64,000 bases of DNA from Candidatus Levybacteria bacterium CG2_30_37_29 (GCA_001873215.1 MNYS01000009.1:3654-67653); one strand, 5' to 3'. Shown: positions 47,016 to 64,000, numbered from the stretch's first letter. A program made the numbers and translations. The notes: a model not told the origin generated them from the letters alone.

Positions 47016-48695
47016 ATGAAATTACTAAAATTTGGATTTATTATTCTTTGTCTTTTATTTTTTGGTTTTGGACTTATCAAGCCGGCAGAAGCTCAGTCAA
47101 CACTAAATTATCCTCCACAAACAAATCCCGATGTTCCAAAAAATCTTCACACATACACCCAGAGTACAATAATAGAACTTCTTGCCGCCGCTTCTTGCCA
47201 ACTTTTAGGAATAGATCCTTTGAATATCGGAGGGAAATGTCTTGGAATTGATTTAAAAACAAAAAAAATAGGGTATGTGGAAAATAATGGTGGCGTAATG
47301 GCATTTGCAGGGGATATGATTGGAAATACGTTTAAGATTCCGATTTCTTCCCATCAATACTTTGCTTCTCTTGCCTCTCAATTCGGTCTTGCTAAAAAAA
47401 CTTACGCAAAACAAATTGACGTTTTTGATGACGGGACAAATACTGGCGCCATTTCAAAACCAACAGGAGTCATGGAACAAGGTCTTGGATTTTTGGGCCT
47501 TCATCCATTAATAAAACTGTGGACAAGCTTCCGGAATATTGTCTATCTTGTTTTTGTATTTGTCTTTGTTCTAATAGGTCTTGGTATTATGTTCCGTTTA
47601 AAAATTGACCCGCGCACCGTTATGACTATACAAAACCAGCTTCCTAAAATTGTTGTTGCCTTGATTCTTGTCACGCTTTCTTACGCAATTGCAGGTTTTC
47701 TTGTTGACCTTATGTATGTTCTTTTATATCTTGTGTTCCATATTTTTTCGAAAGTTGACCCCCAAATTAGCACCATAAATCCTTCAACTTTTATTTATAC
47801 AAATCCTGTTGGCGCGGTAGGCGGAATTGGAGGACTTTCTGGAATCGCAAATAACGCGGGAGGAAGTGTCGGAAATATTGTTGCTTCGCTTTTTGACGGA
47901 ACTTGGGGAAGGGTTGTTGCCGGAATAATAAGCGCTGTCGTAGGAGGAATAATTGGTGGAGGAATTGGAGGAATTTTTGGGGCTGGCCCTATTGGTGGAA
48001 TAATTGGAGGTATCGTATCTGGAATAACAGGAGCATTTTTCTCTGATTCAATTATTAATGTTGTTGCGCACGTTATCGGCTTTCTTATCATAGGAATTGC
48101 CATGCTTCAGGCGCTTTTCAGACTATGGTTCCAGCTTATCAAAGCCTACATATATATATTAATAGGGGTTACTCTTGCGCCTTTTTATATTGTCATGGGG
48201 CTTTTCCCGGGATCAGGGGTAGGATTTGGAAGCTGGCTTAGAACGCTTATTTCAAATTTAGCCGCGTTCCCGACAGTACTTTTCATGTTTTTGCTGGGAG
48301 AATTTTTTATAAGAGGGCTTAGAAACAATGGAACAAACAGCTTTGTTCCTCCTTTTGTCGGGAATCCAAGCGATACATCAAATTTTGGTGCGCTTATTGG
48401 TCTTGGGATAATCCTTATGACCCCCGAAGTTGTGAATATTGTAAGAGATAAATTGAAAGCTCCGCAATTCAAATACACATCCTCTATTACTGGTGCTCTC
48501 AGGGGGTCAACTAAAACAATAAATGAGGGTAGGAGATGGGGATGGGATAGACTTGCGAGACCACGAAATCTTCAAACTGGGGATCCTGGGGGACCATTGA
48601 GACAATGGGTGACACAAGCGGCGACTCCTAGTAATACTAATCCAAATCCATCACGACTAGCAAGAACCATTAGGGCTGTTTTTGGTTGGCATTAG
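47016..48695 (+). CDS. VirB6/TrbL-like polytopic membrane protein with glycine-rich loop (putative T4SS channel component)
   Basis: Signal peptide, about 150-aa periplasmic domain, then 6 or more TM helices including a Gly/Ile-rich stretch (GGIIGGGIGGIFGAGPIGGIIGGIVSG); first gene of the T4SS-like island. Confidence 0.4.
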   Translation: MKLLKFGFIILCLLFFGFGLIKPAEAQSTLNYPPQTNPDVPKNLHTYTQSTIIELLAAASCQLLGIDPLNIGGKCLGIDLKTKKIGYVENNGGVMAFAGDMIGNTFKIPISSHQYFASLASQFGLAKKTYAKQIDVFDDGTNTGAISKPTGVMEQGLGFLGLHPLIKLWTSFRNIVYLVFVFVFVLIGLGIMFRLKIDPRTVMTIQNQLPKIVVALILVTLSYAIAGFLVDLMYVLLYLVFHIFSKVDPQISTINPSTFIYTNPVGAVGGIGGLSGIANNAGGSVGNIVASLFDGTWGRVVAGIISAVVGGIIGGGIGGIFGAGPIGGIIGGIVSGITGAFFSDSIINVVAHVIGFLIIGIAMLQALFRLWFQLIKAYIYILIGVTLAPFYIVMGLFPGSGVGFGSWLRTLISNLAAFPTVLFMFLLGEFFIRGLRNNGTNSFVPPFVGNPSDTSNFGALIGLGIILMTPEVVNIVRDKLKAPQFKYTSSITGALRGSTKTINEGRRWGWDRLARPRNLQTGDPGGPLRQWVTQAATPSNTNPNPSRLARTIRAVFGWH

Positions 48696-48706
48696 CGTCC
48701 CCAATT

Positions 48707-51700
48707 CTAACTAGAAGAAAAAATGTATTTAAAAAATGCCTTAGTTGTACCTACCGCAAAAGAAGCAACACCTACACCCCCACTATAACTAAGCTCTTCT
48801 GCAAGCAATCTTTTATAAGTCACTTTCCCAAGTGGGGCAATATGCTTTTCCCATTCTTCGTTTGTGAAAAATGGAGCTTTAATTTCAACATCCCTAAACC
48901 CGTTTTTCACAACTTCTTGTATCTCAAGACCCCATTCTCCAAAGAACTCTTTAATCATTCGTATTTCATAAGAACTCCAGCGTTCTTGGCCGACTCTCCA
49001 TTTTCTATGATAATACAATTCCTTTCCTATAAGGTAAGCGAAGATGTCGCGAGCAACATATGTGTTCTCTTCTTTCTGTTCCATTATGGCCTTCGTGTCT
49101 GCTCTTTCGTACATGCCCATTTCTCTAATTTCTTTGTTAAACATAAACTCTTTTGTTGTTTTGTCTCCAAAGCGTAGTCTCCTTACGCGCTTTCCATCCT
49201 TGTCTCTTCCCTCTTCTCTCCACCAGCCCCGTGTTTTATCATCCCATAAAAATGCCGGCATGTCATAGGCATATCGTAAATCGTGCCATACTCCTTTTTT
49301 TACTATTTCTTCTGCTTTGTCTTTATCTATGATAAGCCTTCCGCTGTAATCTTTTTTCAAAAACTGTGAAAAATTCATCCCGTGTTTATTTATTAAAAAG
49401 TCCAAAAGCTGAAAAGCATTTGAAACATGTTCTACGGTAAATTGCCTTTGAGCATTCCCTTGAAAATCAAAGTCCTCTAAGGAGGATAAATTAATTTCGT
49501 TTGGATCGCTACTCCCCTGCAAAAGCTTTATTAGTGGCGTATCAAAACCTCTACCGCCTTCCTTTTTTACCTTCAATGCCTGCCATAAATTTAAGCCTAG
49601 CCTTTCTATTCCGTAAACCGTATCATCCATACCGTAAACTCCTCTACCGCCCGACGCTTGTCTTATCCTATATTCTTTTGTGTTTAAAATATTAGACCAC
49701 TTGTCAAATCCTATGGCATCGGTGTCGTTATATGCAGATATTCCTGTCCAGTATGTAAATTTAAACGCCCATGTCTCACCATAATCCCTGTCTATCTCTT
49801 GCTTTTCACTAAGATGTTCTGCTGCGCTAATTCCGTCACGAATTGCTTTTCTCGTAAGATCGATTAATGTCTGTTCCTTTTTGTTCTGACTATAGATATT
49901 TAGTCTGGAAAATGGCATTTCTTTATTTTTTACATTATTGTCCCACTCCTTAAAATCTATAAACTCCTTTTTCGTATTAAAATATTTATGCGAAAGAGAT
50001 CTTAAAGCAAATTCTCTTCTGTTAGCAATTAAGTTATCAAGGTATTCTTCAGATATATTAAGAGGTCTTTTAAAATAAGATGGGTCGTTGGGGTCGCCTT
50101 GATTTACGTAATCCAGAAAATTTTTTTTATCAGCACCGAAGATATCTACTCTTATATCTTCTGCTGTTGGTTTCTTTCCTGGATTTTCAAGCATAAACTT
50201 TTCTTCTTTTATTTTCTCCAGGGCCTTTATCTCTCTACTAAAAGATTGTTTGATTACACTATCATAAAATGCTTTTATGCCCTCGTCGCCAAGCACCTTG
50301 TTAAACATTTCTTCGTCTGGAAGAAAACTATATGCAAGAAGAGCTCTCCTGACAATTTTTCCTACCATTCCCTGATTAATTTCTCCAAGATCAGGGGACT
50401 CCATAAGCTTTTTTACATCTTCGCCTTCAACGCCCGGAAGTTTTAATATCCAAAGCAGCCTTTTTCTGTTCATGGTAAATTCGTTTCCATAGTTAACTTT
50501 CGCAAGCGTTTCATTAACTGCTTTCGCCTGTCCCATTATCAGACGGTAATTTACGTCATTATTGTGATTTTTTCCAAAAAGCCAAACCTCATTTAAGCAC
50601 TCGTCTTTGAGGTGATTATATTCTTCGTCTTTCCCGTATTTATAGCTGTCTGCTCTCAACACCCTATCTTCCTTAACATATACTCCTTCTACTGTTTTTT
50701 CTCTTTTCATAAAATATCTTGAAGTTCCAACAATTTCGGAGAATGTGATAGACCGGTAAATTGTCGGGATGGAAATTTCGGAAAAAAGATTTATCTCAGC
50801 GTCTGGGCTAAAACTATCATAGAAAAGTATTCTGCTTCGTATCCAGGCTAAAAAGTGTGCAGGAATAAATTCTCCTTCTTTATTTATAAGCTCAAGGCTA
50901 CCATTGGTTCTCCACTTATCTTCTTCTGAGTCCATAATAAGCTCGGCAAGATGCTCAAGAGAACGCACTTTTTCCTCCCTAACATCACTTCCTTCGTAGG
51001 ACTTATAGTGCTTAACAATTTTTTCTGCGAAGCTTGTGGCTTTTTCTCTTTGTTTTATAATGTCTATTTCGCCTTTTATTTCTTCAAGCTCTTTTATGTA
51101 GCTTTCGTACGTCTTGTCATCTGCTATTTTTTTTGTAAGCCTTACATATCTTTGAAGCCTATCTAGTTCGCGCTCCATTTCATCATTGGTCTGAACATTT
51201 TTTATTTTTTCTACGATTTTGTCTATCTCAACCGTCGTAAGCTTTTTTATTTTTTTTCCGTCTGCGTACTGTTTCATAAAGGCCGCGCATTCTTCAGGGG
51301 TCATTCCTTGTGTGTATTCTTCTACAGAACCAAGGTCTTCTCCCGTCTCATCATCTTCTTCTCCTTCGCTATCTGCTCCAGCCGCCGTATCTTTTCCGCT
51401 CCCTCCTCCATTTCCCGCTCCCCCTTCTTCCGCACCGGCATCTTCACTATCGCCTAAAAACTCCACTTCGTCTGCCGGAATTAAAGCGTTATTTCCTTCA
51501 ATAGTAAGATACTCGCGTCCGTCCTCTGTCTCTCCAAAACTTCCTGTTACAACAATTGAAATCTCTGTTCCTCCTGTTTTCCACACCGCCCTTCTTCTAG
51601 CTCTTGGGGGGATTTTTTCCTTGGGTGTCGCGGTATCATCTTTTTGCGGAGACGTATCTTCAGCTTCATTCGAAGACCCTTCATCTTCGACAGGTTCTGG

Positions 51701-51943
51701 AATCCATGATTCATTAACTGGAATATCTTTCGAACTTGATCCGTCGAGAATGTCTTCTCCTCCTTCATTCATAGAAAAATCTGCAGGCTTTGCTGCATTC
51801 TTATCCAGTTTAGGTTCTCTTTCCCCGTTTGTCAATTCGCGTTCACGTTCTACCATAAGCGCAGTATACCCGCAGGTGACGGTCCAAACTTGACTTCTAC
51901 CTTGTATTCTCCTCACAAACATCCAACAACCAGGCGAATACAA
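48707..51943 (-). CDS. Large hypothetical protein (1078 aa) with acidic Gly/Glu-rich N-terminal region; no recognisable domains
   Basis: Long uninterrupted minus-strand ORF; N-terminal 250 aa very acidic and low-complexity (EGGAGNGGGSGKDTAAGADSEGEEDDETGED), locally higher GC. The remainder is a hydrophilic Lys/Glu/Trp-rich globular sequence with no TM helices. Confidence 0.55.
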   Translation of the reverse strand: MYSPGCWMFVRRIQGRSQVWTVTCGYTALMVERERELTNGEREPKLDKNAAKPADFSMNEGGEDILDGSSSKDIPVNESWIPEPVEDEGSSNEAEDTSPQKDDTATPKEKIPPRARRRAVWKTGGTEISIVVTGSFGETEDGREYLTIEGNNALIPADEVEFLGDSEDAGAEEGGAGNGGGSGKDTAAGADSEGEEDDETGEDLGSVEEYTQGMTPEECAAFMKQYADGKKIKKLTTVEIDKIVEKIKNVQTNDEMERELDRLQRYVRLTKKIADDKTYESYIKELEEIKGEIDIIKQREKATSFAEKIVKHYKSYEGSDVREEKVRSLEHLAELIMDSEEDKWRTNGSLELINKEGEFIPAHFLAWIRSRILFYDSFSPDAEINLFSEISIPTIYRSITFSEIVGTSRYFMKREKTVEGVYVKEDRVLRADSYKYGKDEEYNHLKDECLNEVWLFGKNHNNDVNYRLIMGQAKAVNETLAKVNYGNEFTMNRKRLLWILKLPGVEGEDVKKLMESPDLGEINQGMVGKIVRRALLAYSFLPDEEMFNKVLGDEGIKAFYDSVIKQSFSREIKALEKIKEEKFMLENPGKKPTAEDIRVDIFGADKKNFLDYVNQGDPNDPSYFKRPLNISEEYLDNLIANRREFALRSLSHKYFNTKKEFIDFKEWDNNVKNKEMPFSRLNIYSQNKKEQTLIDLTRKAIRDGISAAEHLSEKQEIDRDYGETWAFKFTYWTGISAYNDTDAIGFDKWSNILNTKEYRIRQASGGRGVYGMDDTVYGIERLGLNLWQALKVKKEGGRGFDTPLIKLLQGSSDPNEINLSSLEDFDFQGNAQRQFTVEHVSNAFQLLDFLINKHGMNFSQFLKKDYSGRLIIDKDKAEEIVKKGVWHDLRYAYDMPAFLWDDKTRGWWREEGRDKDGKRVRRLRFGDKTTKEFMFNKEIREMGMYERADTKAIMEQKEENTYVARDIFAYLIGKELYYHRKWRVGQERWSSYEIRMIKEFFGEWGLEIQEVVKNGFRDVEIKAPFFTNEEWEKHIAPLGKVTYKRLLAEELSYSGGVGVASFAVGTTKAFFKYIFSSS

Positions 51944-52203
51944 AGATATCGATGCATAATTCCCAACTTATAAACAAAATTTGCAGTTTTAAATTATAAA
52001 TTTTAAATGAATTATCAATGATTAAAAATTTAAAAAAATATTTTGTGAATATAATCTCTGTTTTGATTCATTTTTTCATTTATACTTCACTTTAAATTAA
52101 AAATTGAAAATTTAAAATTAACATGGAATTGTCATCTATTTAGGGTTTATGACCATAGTTTTTCATCTTTTACCTTCTGTGCTCTATCGTCTATAATGTA
52201 TTT

Positions 52204-53505
52204 ATGGAGCCGAAACACTTTGAAAGCCTTTACCCTGAAAATACGCGCGAAAAAGAGCTTGAAAAGCTTATTTCTATATTGCGCGCGGGAAAAGCGGCGC
52301 AAGTAGTGGGGATTCCGGGTGTTGGCAAAAGCAATGTTTTGCGCCTTCTTCCTTATAATAAAGCAGTCAGGACAAAGCACCTCGGAGTGGATGAAAAAAA
52401 CTTCCACTTTGTCTACATGGACTTTTCAGAAGTAAAAGACCGCGCTCTTTTTGAAGTCGTAAAATTCATACTTATTTCTCTTTCTATGTCGCTTGGCGAA
52501 CGCGGATTTGGAAAAGACCAAAACGTTTTAAACGATTTGCTAAAAGACGCCATAACTTTTCAAGACGACCTCATTCTTTTTCAGGCTTTAAAAAGAGGGA
52601 TAGATTACCTGACGGGTGAAAAGCGCTACTCTGTCGTATTTTTATTTGACAGATTTGATGAATATATTCCGGTACTTGACCCGCGTTTTTTTTCAAATTT
52701 AAAGATTTTGCGAAATCGCGCAAAATATAGTTTTTCCTGTGTTTTTGCAACCACACGGCCTCTGGAGGATATTTTGGAGCCTGTATTTTTTTCCGATTTT
52801 TACGAATTTCTTGTTGGAAATAGTGTTTATCTTCCAATTTTTGACGCGGTAGGCCTCCCCTTTAGGCTTTCGTATCTTGAAAAAATTACCGGTAAAAAAA
52901 CGCGTCCGGAAATAAAAAAAGACGTTATGTCTCTTTGTGGCGGTCACGGAAAATTGACGCGCGTTTCATATGAGCTACTTCTTTCTGAAAAAAAGGCAGA
53001 AGATCTCAAATCTTTTTTGATTTCAAAAAATCAGGTAAAAGGCGCGCTTTTTGAAATCTGGAGCGCCTTAACCGCCGAAGAACAAAAAATTCTAAGGGAG
53101 AAAAAAACAACCGAATACTTAGAAAACGTAGGCCTTGTTTTAAAAAACAATCTTACTATTCCTCTTTTGGAAGAGTTTTTATCAGATCTTCCCCAAACAC
53201 AAAAAGAAGAACTTGTTTTTGACGCCCAAAAAAATGAAATAAAAAAAGGACAGGAAATTCTGACAGAAAAGCTCTCTCCTTCAGAATTTCGCCTTTTGCG
53301 CTTCCTTATTATAAATAGGCCGCGGGTTTGCGAGAAAGAAGAAATTATTGAAAATGTTTGGACAGAGGCAAAAACGCGTGAGGGCGTGACAGACCAAGCT
53401 CTTGACCAGATAATTTACAGGCTTCGCAAAAAAATTGAAAACGACCCAAACAATCCCCAACACATTCAAACAATAAAAGGCCGCGGATATAAGGTTGAAC
53501 AATAA
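52204..53505 (+). CDS. P-loop (AAA/STAND-like) ATPase fused to C-terminal OmpR/PhoB-type winged-helix DNA-binding domain
   Basis: Walker A VVGIPGVGKSNVLRLL, Walker B-like VVFLFDRFDE. C-terminal LLRFLIINRPRVCEKEEIIENVWTE...TDQALDQIIYRLRKKIE...IQTIKGRGYKV is a trans_reg_C winged helix. Confidence 0.65.
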   Translation: MEPKHFESLYPENTREKELEKLISILRAGKAAQVVGIPGVGKSNVLRLLPYNKAVRTKHLGVDEKNFHFVYMDFSEVKDRALFEVVKFILISLSMSLGERGFGKDQNVLNDLLKDAITFQDDLILFQALKRGIDYLTGEKRYSVVFLFDRFDEYIPVLDPRFFSNLKILRNRAKYSFSCVFATTRPLEDILEPVFFSDFYEFLVGNSVYLPIFDAVGLPFRLSYLEKITGKKTRPEIKKDVMSLCGGHGKLTRVSYELLLSEKKAEDLKSFLISKNQVKGALFEIWSALTAEEQKILREKKTTEYLENVGLVLKNNLTIPLLEEFLSDLPQTQKEELVFDAQKNEIKKGQEILTEKLSPSEFRLLRFLIINRPRVCEKEEIIENVWTEAKTREGVTDQALDQIIYRLRKKIENDPNNPQHIQTIKGRGYKVEQ

Positions 53506-53543
53506 CCTTGACTTCCCTTTTACTTTTCCAATATGATTAAAGC

Positions 53544-54986
53544 ATGAAGAGGTTTTTTTGTTTTCTCGCCGTTTTTCTTTTTTTTCTTTTTTATACAGCA
53601 ACCAGTGTGTTTGTGCAAACTGCGTCCGCCGACGAAAACAAAGCAGAGCCTGTTTACATACTCCAAAATTCAGGAGGAAACAAGCCAACCACTACGTATT
53701 CTGCGGCCACAGCACAGTTACCCTTTGATTGGAACCGCGATGAAAAAGGCAACCCCACATCTCCCATCATAAACGGCCGCGTGCAATTTGTCCAAGTCAC
53801 TTTTCAAGGGATTGAAAAACCGGAAGAAGGAGAGCTATATTTTTGTCTTCGTACTAACGAAAAAGACTGCGCAGACGGGGACAATCGCGGCAAATTAAGC
53901 TTAATAAAAGACTCATTTAACGAAAGCGCGAAGACCGTTACGATGATTGTTTGCGGCCGCGGAGAAAAAAACTTAAAAACTTGGGTTCCGGGCAAAAAGC
54001 CCAATGACTGGTGGTGCAATGACAAAAATCACACAACAGATTATTTTCATGAGGGGAATTATTATACAGTCCGTCTTTACGGAAGCAAAACAGGGAATAG
54101 TCTTATAGACAGCATATCTTTTTTTGTCAAGCATTCATTTCCAACTTTTGACCCTAAAACAGGAGCTACGTCTGATAACCCCCCCTTTAAGACACCGTCC
54201 AGAATAAGGATCGGTTTTGACAATAAAAACGAATTAAGCATGCGTGCAGGCCCCTTTAAAAAAAACGCATATTTGTTTGCTCTGGTAAAGCTGGGGGGTG
54301 GATATCAAGATTTTGCTTGTGGCATTTTCGCCCCAACTCAAGAAAACCCCAACTATACATTTACAAACAATGCCTCCTATATGACGCTGGGGTCTTTGGG
54401 TGGTGCCGTTTTTGGTTCTATACAAAGAAAAGACAACGGCGGAGGAGGTCTTGGAATAGGACGTTACGTGCTCACAATATCCGACTGGCCGCTCTCCAAC
54501 GACAACAACATTCTTTCTTGTTTTAAAAAAGGAAACTTTATTTATTATGCCCAGCTAATAACAATTGGCAAGAACGGAGGAACAGCACAAGAACTGATAA
54601 AAGATCCTGCCGGCATGGAGACCGAGGAGGAACTTGAAAAGGCCCCGCCCGCCATACCTTGCAACCCCGGAAAGGCAAACAACGGTGTTGATGAAGGCGG
54701 CAATTGCAAAACCGTCTCAACGGCAATTGGACCAATTGACGTTGACCCACAAAAGTTTATTGCCTCGCTTTTTCAACGCGTTTTATCTATTGCCGGATTT
54801 GCCGCCATAATAATTATCCTTATTGCTTCTTACAACCTTATGTTCTCCGGAGGAAATAAGGAAAAAATTGCGGGCGCACGCGAAACAATTACCGCAGCTG
54901 TCCTTGGTCTTCTTTTTATAATTTTTTCAATTGTTCTTTTGAAAATTATTGGCGTTGATATTTTGCGCATTCCCGGATTTAAATAG
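53544..54986 (+). CDS. Secreted protein with C-terminal VirB2/TrbC-like pilin module (pilin-adhesin fusion)
   Basis: Signal peptide MKRFFCFLAVFLFFLFYTATSVFVQTASA, about 400-aa Cys-containing soluble domain, then C-terminal two-helix module FAAIIIILIASYNLMFSGGNKEKIAGARETITAAVLGLLFIIFSIVLL homologous to the three small pilin ORFs nearby. Confidence 0.5.
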   Translation: MKRFFCFLAVFLFFLFYTATSVFVQTASADENKAEPVYILQNSGGNKPTTTYSAATAQLPFDWNRDEKGNPTSPIINGRVQFVQVTFQGIEKPEEGELYFCLRTNEKDCADGDNRGKLSLIKDSFNESAKTVTMIVCGRGEKNLKTWVPGKKPNDWWCNDKNHTTDYFHEGNYYTVRLYGSKTGNSLIDSISFFVKHSFPTFDPKTGATSDNPPFKTPSRIRIGFDNKNELSMRAGPFKKNAYLFALVKLGGGYQDFACGIFAPTQENPNYTFTNNASYMTLGSLGGAVFGSIQRKDNGGGGLGIGRYVLTISDWPLSNDNNILSCFKKGNFIYYAQLITIGKNGGTAQELIKDPAGMETEEELEKAPPAIPCNPGKANNGVDEGGNCKTVSTAIGPIDVDPQKFIASLFQRVLSIAGFAAIIIILIASYNLMFSGGNKEKIAGARETITAAVLGLLFIIFSIVLLKIIGVDILRIPGFK

Positions 54987-54997
54987 TATAAAAAAGC

Positions 54998-55321
54998 ATG
55001 AAATTACTATCACTTTCGATACCTGAATACGGAAATATTATAGCTCCTACGGGCATACCTGACGGTAGCAATCTTTCTCTTCAAAAAATTGTGACTTTTT
55101 TTCTGACCCTTCTTGTTATCGCGGGAATCTTATTGGCTTTGGTTTTTATAACATTCGGCGCTTTTCAGTGGATTACATCAGGCGGAAGCAAGGAAAAAAT
55201 TGACAAGGCAAGAAAAACAATTTTGTTTTCAGTTATGGGGCTTGTAATTATTTCTCTTTCATTTGTTATCATAGGCCTTGTAGCGGGAGCTCTTGGACTA
55301 GACTCGCTTATCGGCAACTAA
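54998..55321 (+). CDS. VirB2/TrbC-like T4SS pilin (paralog A)
   Basis: 107 aa; leader then LVFITFGAFQWITSGGSKEKIDKARKTILFSVMGLVIISLSFVII; two hydrophobic helices around the conserved F-WITSGG-x-EK-I-x-AR motif. Confidence 0.55.
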   Translation: MKLLSLSIPEYGNIIAPTGIPDGSNLSLQKIVTFFLTLLVIAGILLALVFITFGAFQWITSGGSKEKIDKARKTILFSVMGLVIISLSFVIIGLVAGALGLDSLIGN

Positions 55322-56754
55322 AAATTTTTCAGAATCACCGAAACACTGTCTTTATATACTTCTTTCCATTTATCTTTTTTAAGGGATGAAAGAAATGAAT
55401 TTTTTTTATTTTTTTTCTCAATAGGCCAAAGCACAACCCCTATATTGTATTTCTTAAACAAAATGCGCCGCTTGGAAACACTGGCTATGGCGTTTTCGTA
55501 GTCTTCAAGCGCATTATTGCTTTCATTTTTTGGGGCATTCTTTTTCCAGCTTGGCATTCTACCGTCAATAAATACTTTTTTTTGGGGAAGTTTCCAGTCC
55601 AAATACCCTCCCCATTCATAACTAGAAAAAATTTGCTTATCCGGAATATTTTTTTGCAAGTACATAACTGCTTTTTGCGGATAAAAATCAGTTTCCAAAT
55701 ACGAAAAAGCTGCCCAAAAAAAAATCAAATAAACAAAGCACAAAATAAAAGAAGAAAGAGTAAAAATACGGGAAAAAAATATCAGACGTTGCATAAAAAT
55801 TTTATCTTTCCTAAAATCTTTCCAAAAATACCTTAATAAATCAGGAAGAATATACAAATTTACAATTACCCAAAAAGGAATATGACGCACGCTGGAAAGA
55901 CCTAAAAAAAGTAAAAAAAAGTATATTCCTATTTTTGTAATGGTAAGTTTTTTGCGATATTTAAAGACAAAAACAAAAGAAAGCGAAAAAAGAACAAGCG
56001 TTGCAAAATTAAAAACAAGAAGAGCCGGAAGCCATTCCATCACCGAAAACCGGAGTCTTGCATCAAACGCCTGCGAAAAAACCTCTGCCCAAATACGCCA
56101 TCCGTACGGATTAATAAATGTTGCAAATATAGACAATGCAACCACAAAAATATCTGTTAATTTGAGTTTTTTGTCCTGTATTGTTTTAAATAAAAGAAAA
56201 AGAACAAGAAGAAAAACCCCCAGTCCGATTGACCCGTGCATATTTACCCACAGAATAAAAACCGGAGGGATAAAATATTTGAATTTTTTCCATTTGTTGT
56301 CATCAAAAAATAAAAAAAGAAGAACAGAAACAAAAAGCCACGAGAGAACTTGAAGCCTTACGCCAAAAGCGGGCATAACAGCAGCTGCTGAAAAGAAATA
56401 AACCCCAAAAAGATACTTATTAAAAGTTCTTATGATTGCAAAAAGAAAAGAAAGTACGGCAATAAAAGAAAAAATAAAAGGGAGAAAAAAAGGAACATTC
56501 GAAAGTACATAAAGCACAATATTTGAAAGATATTCATGATCTATAAAAGGAAATGAAGACATCGTGTAGGAAAAAGGGTCGGTTTTTGGCAACCCACTAC
56601 TAAGAATGATCTCCCCTATCTGCACATGCCACCCAAAATCGGTATCTATTTGTCCTACGGTTTTTAAAAAAAACAAAACTGTCAAAACAAACAATAATCC
56701 AAAAAGGGGCAAGAATGGAGCGTTTCTTTTTTTCACAAGCTTAATAATACCCAT
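55318..56754 (-). CDS. Polytopic membrane protein with C-terminal extracytoplasmic domain (GT-C-like), unknown function
   Basis: Start moved to the internal MGIIKLVKKR (56754) to avoid overlap with the downstream pilin gene; about 12 TM helices, hydrophilic 130-aa C-terminus. Encoded antisense within the pilin gene cluster. Confidence 0.35.
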   Translation of the reverse strand: MGIIKLVKKRNAPFLPLFGLLFVLTVLFFLKTVGQIDTDFGWHVQIGEIILSSGLPKTDPFSYTMSSFPFIDHEYLSNIVLYVLSNVPFFLPFIFSFIAVLSFLFAIIRTFNKYLFGVYFFSAAAVMPAFGVRLQVLSWLFVSVLLFLFFDDNKWKKFKYFIPPVFILWVNMHGSIGLGVFLLVLFLLFKTIQDKKLKLTDIFVVALSIFATFINPYGWRIWAEVFSQAFDARLRFSVMEWLPALLVFNFATLVLFSLSFVFVFKYRKKLTITKIGIYFFLLFLGLSSVRHIPFWVIVNLYILPDLLRYFWKDFRKDKIFMQRLIFFSRIFTLSSFILCFVYLIFFWAAFSYLETDFYPQKAVMYLQKNIPDKQIFSSYEWGGYLDWKLPQKKVFIDGRMPSWKKNAPKNESNNALEDYENAIASVSKRRILFKKYNIGVVLWPIEKKNKKNSFLSSLKKDKWKEVYKDSVSVILKNF

Positions 56755-56825: not shown

Positions 56826-57230
56826 ATGAAGTCATTATCACGCATAACAGCTATCCCGTTTGCATTTCTTTTTGCCAATTTGCCCCAAGCATTCGCAGTA
56901 GGAAACAGCCTGGATGCAAGCGTTACCACACCAAATGGAGTTATACCGCCTGAAAAAAGAATAGGGGCAATCGTTACTTTTTTTGTTTCTTTTCTTGTTG
57001 TAATTGCAGTTCTTGCCGCTCTTCTATATATTATTCTCGGCGCTTTTCAGTGGATTACATCCGGAGGAGACAAAACAAAAGTTGAAAGCGCGCGAAATCA
57101 TATTATTGCAGCAGTTATTGGACTTATCATAATTGCTCTTACTTTTGTCATAATAAATGTCCTCATGCAAGTTTTGGGCATAGGAAGCCTCACAAATTTT
57201 CCAATTCCAACACTCGACAGCATCAACTAA
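56826..57230 (+). CDS. VirB2/TrbC-like T4SS pilin (paralog B)
   Basis: Signal peptide MKSLSRITAIPFAFLFANLPQAFA, then LYIILGAFQWITSGGDKTKVESARNHIIAAVIGLIIIALTFVII, the same motif as the other paralogs. Confidence 0.55.
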   Translation: MKSLSRITAIPFAFLFANLPQAFAVGNSLDASVTTPNGVIPPEKRIGAIVTFFVSFLVVIAVLAALLYIILGAFQWITSGGDKTKVESARNHIIAAVIGLIIIALTFVIINVLMQVLGIGSLTNFPIPTLDSIN

Positions 57231-57276: not shown

Positions 57277-57582
57277 ATGGCTGTAACACAAGACTGGACT
57301 TCCTGCCTTGAAAGCGGGGACGTAGCGACACTTAGGTGTATTCCTATTGTCTTGCAAAACATAATTAATTTTTTGGTTATATTTGCAGGAGTCATCGCTG
57401 TTTTTTTTATTGTATTTTCAGGAATCCGCTTTGTGACTTCAGGTGGAGATCCTGAAAAAATCGCGTCTGCAAGAAAAATTTTGACATACGCAATAATAGG
57501 ATTTATTATTGTCGTTTTTTCTTTTGTAATCTTGAATTTAATTGCGAAAACAACAGGCGTTACCCAGCTCGAACCAAGATAA
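57277..57582 (+). CDS. VirB2/TrbC-like T4SS pilin (paralog C)
   Basis: FFIVFSGIRFVTSGGDPEKIASARKILTYAIIGFIIVVFSFVIL: same motif with W replaced by F/V. Confidence 0.5.
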   Translation: MAVTQDWTSCLESGDVATLRCIPIVLQNIINFLVIFAGVIAVFFIVFSGIRFVTSGGDPEKIASARKILTYAIIGFIIVVFSFVILNLIAKTTGVTQLEPR

Positions 57583-57706
57583 AAGATTATCTTTTCACAT
57601 TTTGCCTCAAACGGTTGTTTTTTTGACCCATTTCGATACTCTTGAAATGATTATTTTCACGTTATACGCTGTTGTATACAGATAAATTCAAAAGGTAAAA
57701 GACAAA

Positions 57707-58081
57707 ATGCAAAATTACAACTCAAAATTTAAAAGCGATTTGATAAAACGATGCTATCAGTTTAGCTTGGCTATTATAGCCCTTGCCGACACATTACCAA
57801 ATAAAAGAAGCGCATGGGTAATAACCGATCAACTAATAAGATCGGCAACTTCTGTTGGGGCGAATCTGGTTGAAGCAAAATCGGCAAGCTCAAGAATTGA
57901 TTTTAAAAAGTTTCATGAAATTGCCCTTAAAAGCGCCAACGAAACGAAATATTGGCTTGAACTATTAACAGACTCTGGATTGACATCGGTTGAATCGGTA
58001 AACATATTGTTAAAAGAGGTTTACGAAATTGCAAACATGATCGCAGCAGGTGTTATTAAATTAAAAGCTAAAAATTTTTGA
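57707..58081 (+). CDS. Four-helix-bundle protein (23S rRNA intervening-sequence protein family, TIGR02436-like)
   Basis: LIRSATSVGANLVEAKSASSRIDFKKFHEIALKSANETKYWLEL matches the family signature (RSATSIGANIAEG...S..DFi.fl.iA.GS..E...L). Confidence 0.6.
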   Translation: MQNYNSKFKSDLIKRCYQFSLAIIALADTLPNKRSAWVITDQLIRSATSVGANLVEAKSASSRIDFKKFHEIALKSANETKYWLELLTDSGLTSVESVNILLKEVYEIANMIAAGVIKLKAKNF

Positions 58082-58131
58082 GTTCTTACTTGGATTTTTA
58101 ACTTTTGAATTTTTATTTTTGAATTTAATTT

Positions 58132-59157: not shown

Positions 59158-59162
59158 AAACT

Positions 59163-59792
59163 ATGTCAAAACAAAAAATACACTCAACAACTCAAGATTT
59201 TACCAACATAGTTGAGATTGCCCAAGACGTTGTCTTTTTTAAAGGCAAAAGCGCATGCATGATACTGGAAGTTTCTTCTGTTAACTTTTTTTTACTGTCG
59301 GGAGACGAGCAGAATGCCAGAATTTATGGATATATGTCGCTTCTTAATTCCCTCTCTTTTGCAATACAGATTTTTATTATTTCCCGAAGAATTGACCTTT
59401 CAGCATACATAAAGCTTCTGGAAGACAGAATTACAATAGTCACAAATCAACGCGTAATTGAGCATCTGCGACTTTACAAAGAATTCATACAAGAACTGGT
59501 AAAAGGCGAAGGTCTTTTGGATAAAAAAGCTTACGTTGTAATTCCCTTTTCAAGCCTTGAGATTGGGCCCTCAACTCCTGCACCAAATAAAAAGCCTCCT
59601 ACTTTTACAGAACAGGCAAGGGCTGTTTTGGAATCAAAAAGAGACAATATCTCAACACAAATTGAGCGCATGGGGCTTATCGTACGCCCTGTTCCGACAG
59701 AAGAATTGGTAAAGCTTTTTTACGAAATCTATAACCAAGACTTTGTCACACTGGACTTCAACTCAGAAGATGTTAAAAACATAATTATATAG
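59163..59792 (+). CDS. VirB4/TrsE N-terminal domain encoded as a separate ORF
   Basis: DFTNIVEIAQDVVFFKGKSACMILEVSSVNFFLLSGDEQNARIYGY matches the VirB4/CagE N-terminus (...kdgsy.ailev..infdl.seeeq...). Stop at 59792, 6 nt before the ATPase ORF. Confidence 0.55.
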   Translation: MSKQKIHSTTQDFTNIVEIAQDVVFFKGKSACMILEVSSVNFFLLSGDEQNARIYGYMSLLNSLSFAIQIFIISRRIDLSAYIKLLEDRITIVTNQRVIEHLRLYKEFIQELVKGEGLLDKKAYVVIPFSSLEIGPSTPAPNKKPPTFTEQARAVLESKRDNISTQIERMGLIVRPVPTEELVKLFYEIYNQDFVTLDFNSEDVKNIII

Positions 59793-59798
59793 CAATAT

Positions 59799-61979
59799 AT
59801 GTTTGGAATTGGAAAAAAACAACAAAAACAAACAGCTCCCGTTCGGGAGGGCGGATTTGTTGCACAAGGAGATAACACAAGCTCAATAAGCCATGCAGGA
59901 ACGACAACAGCACAGCATGCCCAACCGCCAGTTTCCCAAAAAAATACTGTCGTTAAAAAGGCAGGCGTCAAAACAACGCCAAGCCCCGCATACGGAGCGC
60001 TGAAAAGCGGGTCCGTATCTTTGGTTGATATTATTTCTCCGTCATCTGTTGAAGTCGACTTTAAGCATATTCGGGTAGGAGACAGATTTTATCGTACTTT
60101 TTTTGTTGTTGATTATCCCCGCCAAGTTTCCCCAAACTGGCTTTCTATTCTAATTGACTACAAAGAGACCATGAACACCTCTATGTTTATTTATCCCATT
60201 GAAAGCAAGGATGTCTTGACCAATTTGAAGCGAAAAATCGCAGAAATGGAAGCAACTCTTGAATCAGACGCAGAACAGGGACTCCAGCCGGACCCAAAAA
60301 TAAATGCGGCGCTTGAAGATGCGGTTGCTCTACGAGAAGAACTTGCCCGCGGACTTGAAAGATTTTTCCAATTCGGTCTCTACATTACTCTTTCTGCCGA
60401 AAATGTTTCAGAACTTGATATAAAAACAAAAGAACTCACGTCCCTTCTTTCCTCAAATCTCCTTGTAATAAAAGCGGCAACTCTTCAAATGGAAGACGGA
60501 TATAAGACCACTCTTCCAACGGGAAGCGACCGGCTTTTTATAACAAGAAACATGGACACAACCTCTCTTGCCTCAACCTTTCCTTTCACGTCTTATGAAA
60601 TTTCCCACCCTAACGGAATTTTATACGGAATAAATACTTTAAACAGTTCTCTTGCAATTGTTGATAGGTTTTCTTTTGAAAACGCCAACGAGGTTGTGTT
60701 TGGAAAGTCCGGTTCCGGAAAAAGCTTTTTGGTAAAACTTGAGGTTTTGCGGCAAATGATGTTTGACGTAGAGATTTTAATCATTGACCCGGAGGACGAA
60801 TACCGCGCTTTATGTCATTCGCTTGATGGCGAATACATATCCTTTTCTAAAAGTTCTGAGGTAAAAATTAATCCATTTGCTCTACTCTCTGATGACATGA
60901 CCGAAGCCCAACTTGGAATAAAAATTCTTTCACTCCATGGACTTTTAAAAACAATGCTTGGAGAAATGTCTCCAACGCAAGAAGCAATTTTGGATAGAGC
61001 AATTGTTCTCTCGTACAAGCAAAAAGGGATTACCCCGGATCCCGCAACATACAAAAACGAACCACCTATTCTTGAAGACTTGTACAAAACACTTCTTAAT
61101 ATGGAAGAGCCCGAAGCAAAAGATTTGGCTTTTCGACTTGAAAAATTTGTCAAAGGAGGATTTGCCGGTCTTTTTAATCAACAAACAAACTATGATGTAA
61201 AAAATCAGTTGACTGTTTTTTCAATAAAACAACTCGAGGATGTTTTACGCCCTATTGCCATGCATGTTATTTTGGATTTTATATGGAACAGGGTCAGAAC
61301 AAAGCTTAAAAAAAGGCTTTTGATTGTTGACGAGGCCTGGTATCTTATGAAAAATCCCGACTCAGCATCTTTTTTGCAGGGAATTGCAAAAAGAGCACGA
61401 AAATATTATTTGGGAGTAACAACTCTTACCCAAGACATTGAAGACTTTTTGGCAAACGATTATGGAAAAGCTATACTTTCAAGCTCATCTATTCAAATTC
61501 TCTTAAAACAAAACTCTTCTGAGGTAGAAACTCTTGGAAAAGCGCTGTTTTTGTCCGAAGGAGAAAAACAGTTTTTGTTAACGGCCCAAGTAGGAGAAGG
61601 CCTTTTGTTTGCCGGACAAAATCATATAACCGCTCAGTTTGCGGCTTCAAAATTTGAATATGACCTTATTACGTCTAAGCCCCAAGACATATTGCAAGGA
61701 GAAGAGGATGCGGCAACAGCCGCTGCTGCCTCTATCGCCCAAGAACCCCCCCCCCAAACAACACCAAGCCCAGCTATCACAGAGCCCACACAACCACCCA
61801 CTCCTCCTCCACAATCACAACCAGTAAGCGCCTCTTCGTCTCAGGTGATTGGCCCACAACAATCTCCGGAGCCAACCGTTGCGCCCCTACAAAATAACAC
61901 CGCTACTCCGCCTCCTCAACCAAAAACAACACCGAGCGATGCCGGCGGAACTTCATCAACAATAATCAATGGACAATGA
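59799..61979 (+). CDS. VirB4/TraE/TrsE-family T4SS ATPase (C-terminal two-thirds) with Pro/Thr-rich tail
   Basis: YRTFFVVDYPRQVSPNWL (VirB4 middle motif), Walker A VFGKSGSGKSFLVK, Walker B LLIVDEAWYLM, TLTQDIED; C-terminal PPPQTTPSP... low-complexity tail. Confidence 0.75.
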   Translation: MFGIGKKQQKQTAPVREGGFVAQGDNTSSISHAGTTTAQHAQPPVSQKNTVVKKAGVKTTPSPAYGALKSGSVSLVDIISPSSVEVDFKHIRVGDRFYRTFFVVDYPRQVSPNWLSILIDYKETMNTSMFIYPIESKDVLTNLKRKIAEMEATLESDAEQGLQPDPKINAALEDAVALREELARGLERFFQFGLYITLSAENVSELDIKTKELTSLLSSNLLVIKAATLQMEDGYKTTLPTGSDRLFITRNMDTTSLASTFPFTSYEISHPNGILYGINTLNSSLAIVDRFSFENANEVVFGKSGSGKSFLVKLEVLRQMMFDVEILIIDPEDEYRALCHSLDGEYISFSKSSEVKINPFALLSDDMTEAQLGIKILSLHGLLKTMLGEMSPTQEAILDRAIVLSYKQKGITPDPATYKNEPPILEDLYKTLLNMEEPEAKDLAFRLEKFVKGGFAGLFNQQTNYDVKNQLTVFSIKQLEDVLRPIAMHVILDFIWNRVRTKLKKRLLIVDEAWYLMKNPDSASFLQGIAKRARKYYLGVTTLTQDIEDFLANDYGKAILSSSSIQILLKQNSSEVETLGKALFLSEGEKQFLLTAQVGEGLLFAGQNHITAQFAASKFEYDLITSKPQDILQGEEDAATAAAASIAQEPPPQTTPSPAITEPTQPPTPPPQSQPVSASSSQVIGPQQSPEPTVAPLQNNTATPPPQPKTTPSDAGGTSSTIINGQ

Positions 61980-63150
61980 AGAAGAAAGAAAAAAACGGGG
62001 GCCTGTTGATGCCATAAATTCTGCAAGAAATTTTTCTCGCAATCTTCGTGGCTCTTTTAAGGCTGTGCGTTTTGTTGCAACCAACGTTGTCCGCGCCGCG
62101 GCCGGAGCAAGCGGCGGCTGGACAATATTTATTGTACTTTTTATTATTTTTATAATTATATGGCTTCTTTTTTTTAGTGAAGGGTCTGCTGTTGACATTT
62201 CCACCGAGGGCAACCAAAGCACGGGGAGTCAAGGAGGAACTGGAAGCACAGGAGGAAATACAAATCCATCTTCTTCAGATATAAACTGCTACACAAGCAT
62301 GTCGGGCGCTGACATGGATGCGTATTTCGCAAGCCAAGGATATATATATTTCAACAACACGGGCGGCGCTCTTGCCACGCTTGCTGAAAAACATAAAATT
62401 AATCCGGCTCTTATTATTGCCATTGGAAGAATGGAAAGCCAACTTGGAAATGCGTATCAATCAGACCCAGATAAACTTGCAAAGAAGAACGCTTTCGGGA
62501 TTGGAGGAGCTGACAACCTACAGCCTTTCTCTACGTGGGAAGAAGGAGCAGAGGTCTCATATAAAAGCGTTGCCAGCTATGGCTGCGCAACGCTTGAGTG
62601 TATTCAGCAGATTTATGCACCGGTAGGTTCATCGGATGACCCCGGCGATTTGAATTCAAATTGGCTTACCGGCGTAAAAGCAATTCTTTCCGAAATACCC
62701 CATGCGTCGTGTCAGCCTCCTGCCGGAACTATTTCCGATTGGCCTATTCAAAAGCCTATCGCCTCTTGCAGCGTAACCCAAAGACCAGGAGAAGGGTTTA
62801 GTCATCCGAATTTAAACGCAGTAGACCTAGGCCTGCTCCATGGCACCAAGGTTTACTCCACAAATAATGGAACCCTTACCGAACTGTATGTTTATGCCTA
62901 TAACTGCTATCCTACGTGTTCCAGTAGCGACGGGAAAGGAACCTATGTTAAGGTCTCAAATGGAAACTCTTGGGCAATTTATGCCCACCTTATTCCGGAA
63001 AGCGTTTCCCATCTAGCACTAAATCAAACAATTAATAAGGGTGATTATTTGGGACAGGTTGACAATACGGGATACAGCGACGGGGCGCACCTGCATTATG
63101 AATTGTCATCTGATCAAACTTTCCCGGATTTTGACACTGCGTGTAATTAA
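61969..63150 (+). CDS. T4SS-associated peptidoglycan hydrolase (VirB1-like): lysozyme-like/SLT domain plus M23 (LytM) peptidase
   Basis: N-terminal TM; transglycosylase-like ALIIAIGRMESQLGNAYQ; C-terminal M23 signature HPNLNAVDL...GTYVKVSNGNSWAIYAHL...GDYLGQVDNTGYSDGAHLHYEL (HxxxD ... HxH). Confidence 0.65.
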   Translation: MDNEEERKKRGPVDAINSARNFSRNLRGSFKAVRFVATNVVRAAAGASGGWTIFIVLFIIFIIIWLLFFSEGSAVDISTEGNQSTGSQGGTGSTGGNTNPSSSDINCYTSMSGADMDAYFASQGYIYFNNTGGALATLAEKHKINPALIIAIGRMESQLGNAYQSDPDKLAKKNAFGIGGADNLQPFSTWEEGAEVSYKSVASYGCATLECIQQIYAPVGSSDDPGDLNSNWLTGVKAILSEIPHASCQPPAGTISDWPIQKPIASCSVTQRPGEGFSHPNLNAVDLGLLHGTKVYSTNNGTLTELYVYAYNCYPTCSSSDGKGTYVKVSNGNSWAIYAHLIPESVSHLALNQTINKGDYLGQVDNTGYSDGAHLHYELSSDQTFPDFDTACN

Positions 63151-63159
63151 TGTAATATA

Positions 63160-63999
63160 ATGTTTGAAATGAACCAAATTATTGAAAGGGTAAAAAATTA
63201 CAAATATTTTTATCCAGTCCTTTTAATTGTCTCTTTGTTTGCTGGAACATTTTTAATACTTTTTGTCGCCGCAATGGTGTTTAAGCAGGAGAAAAAACAG
63301 GAACCAAAAAGAGATGGAGGAGTTATCGTTATAGGGAATCCAACAATAAAACCTGTTATTACAATTCCGGCAGCTCCTACATCTGGAGAAAAAATTAATC
63401 CTGTAATCCTGCAGGGAACCAGCATTTTCTATCCAGCCCTTTATCAGAACTATATTTATTATTTATCTGATGCCGGAACAAGATTTTACAAAATAAAAAC
63501 AGATGGAAAAGAAAAAGCTCCAATATCAGATGTTTTAGTGGCACAAATCAAAAATGTTACCTGGTCACAAGACGGCCTATCTGCGGTTATACAAGTAGAA
63601 AATAATAAATATTTCTTAGGAAAGAACAACAGCCCGTTTTTTTCCGAAAAAGATGAAAATTTAGCAACAACCAATTGGCTTTATGCTTTTCAAACAAAAA
63701 CATTAAAACAAATCGACACGTCTGCAATAGCTTTTTCCTTTTCTCCGTCTGGTAGGCTTTATTACATTTCCGTTGAGCGGCCGCAGAATGCGCCCCCTCA
63801 AACTTCACTTTATGCTTTGGACACAAATTCAACAAAAATCCTAACGTTCCCCGAAAGACAAAATTTAATTTATCATGTTTCAGAAAATACAATTATTACA
63901 TCAACGAGTCCGGGTCCTCTTCTTAAAAACATCTCTTATTATCAGGTTTCTACGACAACAAAAGAAGTCACTAAAATTCCTCCGCCACCAAACACTTTT
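63160..63999 (+). CDS. Membrane-anchored hypothetical protein (partial, continues beyond the window)
   Basis: ATG at 63160 or 63169; TM YFYPVLLIVSLFAGTFLILFVAAMVF followed by a beta-rich soluble domain; no stop before the window end. Confidence 0.4.
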   Translation, partial: MFEMNQIIERVKNYKYFYPVLLIVSLFAGTFLILFVAAMVFKQEKKQEPKRDGGVIVIGNPTIKPVITIPAAPTSGEKINPVILQGTSIFYPALYQNYIYYLSDAGTRFYKIKTDGKEKAPISDVLVAQIKNVTWSQDGLSAVIQVENNKYFLGKNNSPFFSEKDENLATTNWLYAFQTKTLKQIDTSAIAFSFSPSGRLYYISVERPQNAPPQTSLYALDTNSTKILTFPERQNLIYHVSENTIITSTSPGPLLKNISYYQVSTTTKEVTKIPPPPNTF

Positions 64000-64000
64000 G

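Follow-up and report, generated by a model that had tools for sequence, protein, structure and literature searches.

Does a cluster of type IV secretion system (T4SS) genes that starts right beside a transposase represent a mobile island, or a settled part of the chromosome—and does it hold anything that described systems lack? We ask this of a 64,000-nucleotide stretch of Candidatus Levybacteria bacterium CG2_30_37_29 (MNYS01000009.1:3654-67653), hereafter the window, in which genes for a VirB-type system run from 47.0 kb to the end. An earlier sequence-only reading saw here an island acquired as a mobile unit, and perhaps a distinct variant of the systems of candidate phyla radiation (CPR) bacteria. 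Our answer differs on both counts: the region from 47.0 to 64 kb is very probably a vertically inherited, origin-proximal chromosomal T4SS locus of Candidatus Levybacteria (Microgenomatia, Patescibacteria), and belongs to the Patescibacteria-clade T4SS derived from monoderm conjugation machinery of the mating-pair-formation FATA class (MPF-FATA).

The Patescibacteria T4SS is one of the few molecular handles on ultrasmall epibionts that exploit host bacteria. The window adds nothing new on the core machine, and its genome has already been surveyed; the leads come from comparison with relatives, namely a putative divergent VirB6 where VirB6 is reported to be scarce, a conserved OmpR-type regulator of the non-receiver kind with a candidate operator, and a slot for giant proteins, which might be substrates. 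What is left as new is to be found in these lineage-specific accessories, above all in the variable giant-protein slot.

Open reading frames (ORFs) were called and 41 window proteins were scanned with Pfam and NCBIfam profiles. For synteny we compared 80 VirB4 loci with 10-kb flanks, together with three Levybacteria loci (L085-L087) whose VirB6-like protein is about 50% identical to that of the window. The published systems were compared by way of the 2025 survey of Patescibacteria T4SS (Quinonero-Coronel 2025, PMC12102498) and PMC12857230.

The secretion machine

The genes that make up the system, and a coupling-protein-like gene that lies apart from it, are as follows.

47016-48695, plus strand: 559-aa polytopic membrane protein, VirB6/TrbL-like but divergent, Gly-rich at its centre and bearing a signal peptide; assigned from homologues and conserved position
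53544-54986, plus strand: long pilin, 480 aa, with a signal peptide, an extracellular domain of ~380 aa and a C-terminal VirB2-like hairpin; PF18895 21.3 bits (below cutoff), residues 404-468
54998-55321, plus strand: VirB2-like pilin, 107 aa; PF18895 25.2 bits (cutoff 26.6)
56826-57230, plus strand: VirB2-like pilin, 134 aa; PF18895 28.9 bits
57277-57582, plus strand: VirB2-like pilin, 101 aa; PF18895 47 bits
58132-59157, plus strand: PrgI/VirB3-like membrane protein with a C-terminal CarboxypepD_reg-like domain; PF12666 27.4 bits (cutoff 27), PF13620 29 bits
59163-59792, plus strand: TrsD/TraC-like protein, 209 aa, counterpart of a separately encoded VirB4 N-terminal domain; NF045975, NF041427, PF26593
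59799-61979, plus strand: VirB4 ATPase of the monoderm MPF-FATA/CD1110 type, 726 aa, with a disordered N-terminus and a Pro/Thr/Gln-rich C-terminus; NF045971
61969-63150, plus strand: membrane-anchored wall hydrolase, overlapping the virB4 stop; M23 PF01551 6.6e-12
63160-64000, plus strand: 5' part of a 396-aa single-pass membrane protein that runs off the window end, with dnaN and dnaA (both minus strand) beyond
29369-31789, plus strand: 806-aa ATPase resembling VirD4-type coupling proteins, encoded 17 kb away from the locus; TraG-D_C 26.5 bits (cutoff 22), TrwB_AAD_bind 24.6 bits (cutoff 20.5)

The VirB4 ATPase scores 398 bits against NF045971 (cutoff 325), 2e-32 for P-loop_TraG and 21.5 bits for CagE_TrbE_VirB (cutoff 21). 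Its N-terminal domain is encoded separately: the stretch matched on the CD1110 VirB4 model is 25-181 for the 209-aa protein and 181-732 for the 726-aa one, and the same complementarity appears on the Mycoplasma VirB4 model NF045975 from an integrative and conjugative element (ICE), at 101-278 and 293-893. The split VirB4 of the sequence-only reading is thereby borne out, the two proteins together filling one VirB4 model. The smaller protein matches NF045975 at 6.4e-9 (positions 101-278), NF041427 TrsD at 5.7e-4 (under the curated cutoff) and the TraC-like family PF26593 (a precomputed match); its gene adjoins virB4 in 73 of the 80 loci, and a TrsD homologue is the most abundant T4SS-associated protein in Patescibacteria (PMC12102498). 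PrgI, which passes the PF12666 cutoff and so upholds the proposed VirB3-like protein, lies directly upstream of trsD-virB4 in 69 of the 80.

Four PF18895 T4SS_pilin domains, two over the cutoff and two slightly under, correspond to the four VirB2-like pilins described before. They are 29-36% mutually identical, and their alignment shows a common pattern of a transmembrane (TM) segment, SGG(D/N/S)xxK..AR and a second TM segment. The long pilin, which is conserved in 32 loci, also matches NF045849, the Mbov_0395 pilin-like family, at 3.5e-5.

Upstream of virB4, at a distance of 12 genes, stands the VirB6-like gene, whose family counts at least 655 homologues. Three of 34 family members match PF04610 (TrbL/VirB6), and two proteins that are 45-46% identical to the window protein (P0053 and P0073) pass its gathering score with 32 against 25.9 bits, over profile positions 42-209. 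The survey calls VirB6 "scarce" among Microgenomatia and reads this as a hint of extreme divergence in sequence (PMC12102498); judged by its homologues and its conserved position, the 47016-48695 protein appears to be a good candidate for that missing VirB6.

The wall hydrolase was expected to combine SLT with M23. The M23 domain is solid; an SLT domain is not demonstrable, and the second domain is only weakly glucosaminidase- or phage-lysin-like (Glucosaminidase 0.0089; PDB 8yxk, phage-cell-wall-hydrolase-like, 1.6e-3 over residues 128-244). In relatives the gene 3' of virB4 varies—M23 in L010, SLT_3 in L008, no recognisable domain elsewhere—which agrees with the survey remark that different hydrolases may serve as VirB1 (PMC12102498).

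Taken together, the VirB6-like, pilin, PrgI/VirB3, TrsD plus VirB4 and M23 genes establish a VirB-type T4SS module in a CPR bacterium, and nearly every gene that the sequence-only reading listed was recovered by ORF calls and profile searches. The parts it had found missing are missing here too: the 41 scanned proteins yield zero matches to relaxase, integrase or VirB8-11 families, and the coupling-protein-like gene sits at a distance, among housekeeping genes.

A locus beside the replication origin

Extending the contig settles what lies beyond the window. In the identical locus, followed for 10 kb downstream, come the rest of the 396-aa membrane protein and then dnaN and dnaA on the minus strand. 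The T4SS locus hence continues for only ~1.2 kb beyond the window and borders on the replication origin, without any more vir genes; relaxase and VirB8-11 are absent from these 10 kb, as the earlier proposal to extend the contig had left to be seen. In most of ten relatives inspected, dnaN lies 2-4 kb behind the virB4 locus, and a position near dnaA/dnaN is described for the T4SS of Microgenomatia and Paceibacteria (PMC12102498).

The gene order is just as stable. Across the 80 VirB4 loci the sequence of P-loop/winged-helix regulator, pilin array, PrgI, TrsD and VirB4 is kept, and loci L085-L087 show the full order: SmpB, (ComF-like), Cob_adeno_trans, ribonucleotide reductase (RNR), NrdR and DUF5667, then the VirB6-like gene, a big minus-strand ORF, the Trans_reg_C regulator, pilins, PrgI and the TraC-like gene. 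A conserved chromosomal locus with the same order in relatives is what the sequence-only reading had itself named as speaking against an island. With proteins from metagenome-assembled genomes of Candidatus Levybacteria/Levyibacteriota the window VirB4 shares 70-82% identity, and the locus recurs unchanged in many assemblies from groundwater as well as in GCA_002793055.1, a genome that the 2025 survey lists in its table as Microgenomatia with VirB4 (Quinonero-Coronel 2025, PMC12102498).

Comparison with known systems and probable function

The window T4SS is the Patescibacteria T4SS already described by Wang 2023 (for Southlakia epibionticum) and by Quinonero-Coronel 2025 (PMC12102498), so the core finding is known. 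In the survey, Patescibacteria VirB4 proteins form a monophyletic clade that is sister to monoderm MPF-FATA; the systems contain TrsD, PrgI/VirB3 and VirB6, with a VirB2 array in which a non-pilin gene sometimes intervenes; VirB1-like hydrolases often carry M23, coupling-protein genes usually lie far from virB4, and there are almost no relaxases (PMC12102498). The window shares all of this: MPF-FATA VirB4 with neighbouring TrsD, PrgI/VirB3 and a putative VirB6, a divergent and interrupted pilin array, a hydrolase 3' of virB4, a remote type IV coupling protein (T4CP), no relaxase and a place near dnaA/dnaN. The suggestion of a distinct variant is therefore not supported, since the composition agrees point for point with PMC12102498 and PMC12857230, and the genome stands in the survey table. 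A difference concerns VirB6, scarce in the Microgenomatia of the survey, whereas the window has a divergent VirB6-like protein that escapes direct detection by hidden Markov models.

Two other groups of systems are close enough to be informative. With the pGO1/pCF10/CTn2-type MPF-FATA T4SS the window shares a CD1110-family VirB4 (398 bits), TrsD, PrgI, a putative VirB6/PrgH analogue, a bifunctional wall hydrolase and the lack of an outer-membrane core; unlike them, it has no relaxase, adjacent T4CP, PrgB-type adhesin or detectable VirB8-like PrgL. Those systems, in turn, are without VirB2-like pilins (PMC12102498), whereas the window has them, and the window locus is chromosomal and vertically inherited. 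The Mycoplasma ICE (Mbov_0395 pilin-like, Mbov_0397 VirB4) resembles the window in that the long pilin is close to NF045849, the TrsD-like protein corresponds to the N-terminal part of NF045975 and VirB4 to the rest; however, all window scores are under the curated cutoffs and ICE features are lacking.

The locus is probably not a classical conjugation system. It is without a relaxase and outer-membrane components, and its coupling-protein gene lies elsewhere; on these points the sequence-only reading is upheld. In Southlakia epibionticum the T4SS is essential for epibiotic growth by transposon sequencing, and among monoderm systems it alone has pilins (PMC12857230). By analogy with that work (PMC12102498, PMC12857230), the Levybacteria system may serve epibiotic life by moving a protein or other macromolecule across the envelope towards a host bacterium rather than by conjugation; the divergent pilins would then form an extracellular filament or contact structure, as the literature suggests.

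A slot for giant proteins

One position of the locus changes its content between relatives, and it is the one new lead of this analysis. In the window it is filled by a single gene.

48707-51943, minus strand: large protein with an acidic, variable N-terminal third, a conserved C-terminal body of ~756 aa and a terminal amphipathic/hydrophobic helix with a basic end; the start is uncertain (1049, 1071 or 1078 aa)

A large minus-strand ORF stands between the VirB6-like gene and the regulator in 16/16 loci with enough upstream DNA. The window protein had been called an orphan, which does not hold: an exhaustive search with residues 215-1078 places it in a family of 206 representative clusters. 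A word-index search with the full 1078 aa gave just two real relatives, dominated as it was by the acidic low-complexity N-terminus. The protein has no match in Pfam, NCBIfam or a PDB profile search, and a Pfam scan of six long family members reveals no additional domains. The 756-residue C-terminal body gives a confident AlphaFold model (pLDDT 90.1, pTM 0.90), for which the PDB offers no known fold; across the family, H, D, Y and R occur at nearly invariant positions. Of the three genes that the sequence-only reading could not assign, this one is still without function or fold; the other two resolve into a conserved regulator (the ATPase/winged-helix fusion) and an unrelated sporadic PF05635 cassette (the four-helix bundle), both described below.

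Only some of the slot ORFs belong to the window-type family. A second set includes L086, L001, L029, L041, L063 and others, and neither BLAST nor the comparison of profiles connects it with the first (hhalign probability 0.2%). Window-type homologues down to 23-26% identity are still convergent with the VirB6-like gene, and one is also divergent from the regulator. Both families occur beside VirB4 proteins 74-78% identical to the window's and beside others 54-61% identical, a distribution that looks incongruent with VirB4 relatedness. A conserved core T4SS component was considered for the large protein and rejected, a family without detectable homology being found in the same slot.

Slot proteins measure ~950-1600 aa. 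In both families signal peptides and internal TM segments are absent, and the C-terminus consists of a hydrophobic or amphipathic helix, rich in Gly/Ala, with a short basic, Lys-rich tail after it (48707-48790 in the window; also in L086, L001, L029 and L041), and in complete L086-type proteins the helix is clearly TM-like, with Kyte-Doolittle values of 1.9-2.3. This C-terminus has the look of a tail anchor or of a signal.

We infer that the slot gene is a swappable accessory whose product would be a cytoplasmic protein, held at the membrane, or targeted to or through it, by the C-terminal hydrophobic helix. Rather than belonging to the core, the large protein would most plausibly, if unproven, act as substrate, effector or specificity factor. 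A broader proposal is that the slot in Levybacteria and related Microgenomatia always holds one giant signal-peptide-less protein, drawn from at least two families without detectable homology, and that these could be cargo, effectors or host-specificity factors of the Patescibacteria T4SS, swapped like effector cassettes; we put this forward tentatively, and as a whole it remains rather doubtful. The available parts of PMC12102498 contain no mention that we found of a variable large-protein slot.

A regulator and a candidate operator

Next to the slot lies a regulator-like gene, and a conserved non-coding block stands further downstream, ahead of prgI.

52204-53505, plus strand: fusion of a P-loop NTPase (Walker A GIPGVGKS) with an OmpR/PhoB-type winged helix at the C-terminus; Trans_reg_C 1.2e-21, AAA_16 weak
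57592-57671, plus strand: conserved non-coding block of ~80 nt, candidate prgI promoter/operator, with direct repeats and promoter-like hexamers

The winged helix of the 52204-53505 protein matches the DNA-binding domains of PhoB, RegX3 and CadC (PDB, NCBIfam). A receiver domain is absent from this protein; the N-terminal part is an AAA_16-like P-loop NTPase. The gene lies directly 5' of the pilin array in 24/80 loci, a count limited by flank length, and in L085-L087 as well. From domains and position we regard it as the putative regulator of the locus. The available main text and supplements of PMC12102498 make no mention of a P-loop/winged-helix regulator (Trans_reg_C/PF00486), nor of the PF05635 cassette.

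The non-coding block is 78-88% identical in more than 25 loci (blastn), its end in relatives being only a few bases short of the prgI ATG. It is single-copy in the window (nhmmer 1.2e-16); a second copy was sought elsewhere in the window and none was found. In relatives it contains 10-bp-phased repeats, TTTTGAC-N3-TTTTGAT, with TTTCGAT in the window copy and TTTYGAT as the consensus. The repeats adjoin TTGCAA-17 nt-TACGCT, and the ATG of relatives follows ~7 nt after the putative -10. This layout suggests a leaderless prgI-trsD-virB4 transcript and a site suited to a protein of the OmpR family; the locus regulator may act on the direct repeats in this promoter block.

Genes inserted among the pilins and ahead of prgI

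Two features stand within the locus and, as far as the comparison goes, outside its machine.

55318-56754, minus strand: membrane glycosyltransferase of the GT-C fold, 478 aa, oligosaccharyltransferase-like, inside the pilin array; AlphaFold 2 model and Foldseek
57685-58128, plus strand: sporadic cassette of ~445 bp with imperfect terminal inverted repeats, carrying the PF05635/TIGR02436 four-helix-bundle gene at 57707-58081

The first, a non-T4SS gene that interrupts the pilin array, was missing from the list of the sequence-only reading. Its model is confident (pLDDT 89.7), and its Foldseek matches in the PDB are STT3, PglB, AglB, DPY19 (a C-mannosyltransferase) and AftA, with E-values from 1e-7 to 2e-4, TM-scores of 0.5-0.66 and a probability of 1.00. 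Across the family D36 and D38 are invariant in the first loop; the WWDYG sequon-binding motif of N-oligosaccharyltransferases is absent from the family, whose consensus is YxWGGYLIWK. Five Levybacteria loci (L004, L008, L009, L025 and L038) have the gene inside the pilin array, and distant homologues of the Woesebacteria type and from other Microgenomatia stand among envelope genes rather than pilins. Given this distribution, the model-based idea that the enzyme may glycosylate the pilins is only a possibility, and the notion of a T4SS-specific pilin glycosylase is weakened. The gene is probably a later insertion outside the T4SS machine. No mention of it was found in the available parts of PMC12102498.

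The PF05635 gene belongs to the "23S rRNA intervening sequence protein" family (Pfam 7e-25; TIGR02436 95 bits). Its cassette is framed by a 52-nt imperfect inverted repeat, whose arms pair as a terminal stem in the predicted fold, and in the window it is inserted exactly between the prgI promoter block and the prgI ATG. Over its whole length it is 68-69% identical to copies in L038 (2487-2931), between the long pilin and the next pilin, and in L016 (1-408), upstream of the regulator. All three of these close copies end 0-3 nt ahead of a start codon; more distant copies lie between prgI and trsD in other genomes. The cassette is a sporadic, probably mobile element and no T4SS component.

In its strong family match it is like the 23S rRNA intervening-sequence (IVS) proteins and the Avd bundles of diversity-generating retroelements (DGRs), and its inverted repeat could form a long stem, as in an rRNA IVS; unlike an rRNA IVS, the window cassette stands in the leader of a protein-coding operon. 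It thus resembles a mobile rRNA-IVS-like element in mRNA leaders, and excision at the stem by an RNase III-type activity is conceivable by analogy. An Avd/DGR reading of the gene was tried and dropped: NF033474 gives 19.6 bits, far short of its cutoff of 80, and the scanned window proteins include no reverse transcriptase.

The transposase element and competing explanations

At the left edge of the locus stands an element of the IS200 type, a transposase associated with repetitive extragenic palindromes (REPs), hence RAYT.

46078-46096, no strand assigned: REP-like hairpin left of the RAYT, GGCAAGG CCCGA CCTTGCC; two copies in the window
46128-46803, minus strand: IS200/RAYT-type Y1 transposase gene, frameshifted; Pfam Y1_Tnp 2e-10 at 46128-46688
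46834-46880, no strand assigned: REP-like hairpin right of the RAYT, then tandem partial repeats CCCGACCTTGCCAACC; from a repeat search

The element itself is as the sequence-only reading described it, a RAYT bracketed by two REP hairpins, with the addition that the gene copy is frameshifted. The hairpin GGCAAGG-CCCGA-CCTTGCC occurs exactly twice in the window against 0.06 expected from shuffles, and the transposase retains its HUH motif (HFH) and its tyrosine motif (YIHLNP). A 1-nt insertion after codon ~18 puts the N-terminal MPSKNRVKIYVENGYYHL in a different frame from the rest. In eight independent assemblies of the same population the gene is intact in two (224 aa; L091 and L092) and 186 aa in six, so the frameshift looks like a real polymorphism or recent decay. 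The element is like other REP/RAYT elements in its HUH and tyrosine motifs and in having a single gene between GC-rich palindromes; it is unlike typical ones in that there are only two REPs in 64 kb and the window copy is frameshifted. A metagenome scan with the 17-nt REP core returned at least 120 stretches, nearly all of them chance matches in unrelated GC-rich contigs; only L165, where an 87%-identical RAYT with an adjoining hairpin stands in another context, was informative.

We hold it very improbable that 47-64 kb is a horizontally acquired mobile island or an ICE remnant with the RAYT/REP element as its left border, even though the Y1 transposase and its flanking hairpins lie exactly at the left edge, GC is 39.0% for 47-64 kb against 35.1% for 1-46 kb, and the Patescibacteria T4SS as a whole is thought to stem from an ancient transfer from monoderms (PMC12102498). 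Synteny contradicts it: the spacer between DUF5667 and the VirB6-like gene measures 1069 bp in the window owing to the RAYT and hairpins, and 125-150 bp, with no RAYT, in the three Levybacteria loci L085-L087, which share the flanks; on the far side dnaN and dnaA are conserved. Composition argues the same way, GC being 38-39% already from 38 kb with no step at 47 kb, and the tetranucleotide distance between 47-64 kb and the remaining window (0.160) falling within the 0.083-0.182 of other 17-kb segments. Among integrase, relaxase, tRNA border and direct repeats, none was found. Because relatives have no RAYT in their short spacer, the allele is frameshift-polymorphic and an 87% copy lies elsewhere, the RAYT is a small, recently active, lineage-specific insertion, neither a T4SS part nor an island border. 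Acquisition as a mobile unit, as the RAYT had suggested, is thus contradicted by conserved flanks, composition and spacer alike; that a transposase borders a gene cluster is no evidence for an island, and the RAYT with its hairpins, like the PF05635 cassette, is a later insertion outside the machine.

A vertically inherited locus could still be a working DNA-transfer system, for conjugation or for uptake and release, with an unrecognised relaxase or DNA-processing protein—possibly the 1078-aa protein—and the remote VirD4-like ATPase. This is a quite improbable reading. A T4CP-like ATPase is indeed present, a ComF-like gene (39338-40045) lies ~7 kb upstream, comF, recG and radA are reported beside T4SS genes in class ABY1 (PMC12102498), and the invariant H, D, Y and R residues of the large-protein family could be catalytic. 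However, relaxase families have no match in the window or the 10 kb downstream, and the surveyed Patescibacteria genomes hold merely 109 relaxases (PMC12102498); in S. epibionticum the T4CP is non-essential and comEC loss has no effect on viability, while the T4SS is essential (PMC12102498, PMC12857230). The large protein shows no HUH motif or Rep_trans-like match, and a slot filled by families without detectable homology is a poor fit to a dedicated relaxase. It is likewise unlikely, though less so, that the large protein, the regulator and the GT-C enzyme are chance neighbours in a compact genome with no functional link to the T4SS: CPR genomes are gene-dense, the slot changes its content, and GT-C homologues in other Microgenomatia lie beside envelope genes; yet the order of VirB6-like gene, large minus-strand ORF and regulator is kept from 79% down to ~23-37% identity, even on contigs with a different second flank, every one of the 16 informative loci has the slot filled, and the regulator is always immediately 5' of the pilin array.

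Several points weigh against our own account, a chromosomal Patescibacteria-clade T4SS with its accessories. The window VirB6-like protein has zero direct matches in Pfam or NCBIfam and a PDB profile search with its family gave nothing meaningful, so the earlier VirB6-like channel stands by way of the two homologues that pass the Pfam cutoff and the conserved position, and the assignment is transitive and made indirectly; a VirB8-like component was not identified among the scanned window proteins. The putative link between regulator and operator is a matter of sequence patterns, and a promoter scan of the window was not above chance (21 sites vs 14.7 +/- 3.2). Several slot homologues are incomplete at the ends of the 10-kb flanks, which makes the family count a lower bound of at least two. 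The function we propose is extrapolated from Saccharimonadia, and a substrate or effector role for the large protein is something that we infer.

Other features of the window

The remaining window is ordinary CPR housekeeping: MurJ, PilN/PilO, GT-C enzymes, triosephosphate isomerase, UvrD, transfer-messenger RNA, a B12 riboswitch, class II RNR and NrdR. PilN-like and PilO-like type IV pilus assembly genes (2348-3573) adjoin MurJ; because they are present, the genome has both a type IV pilus and a T4SS, as reported for Saccharibacteria. The ComF-like gene mentioned above, on the minus strand, combines a DZR_2 double zinc ribbon with Pribosyltran and has the same neighbourhood in L086 and L087. 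An AdoCbl-II riboswitch (41970-42049, minus strand) lies between the genes for the B12-dependent ribonucleotide reductase and cobalamin adenosyltransferase, and a tRNA-Ile with anticodon TAT (31812-31885) stands directly 3' of the T4CP-like gene.

Within 17430-19127 the match of the triosephosphate isomerase gene to its Pfam model falls into two stretches, and the gene has an overlap with the beginning of a LAGLIDADG_3 homing-endonuclease-like ORF (18189-19127), which is directly 5' of uvrD. At 23408-24226 on the minus strand an ATP-cone is, unusually, fused to an Mrr-type restriction endonuclease domain.

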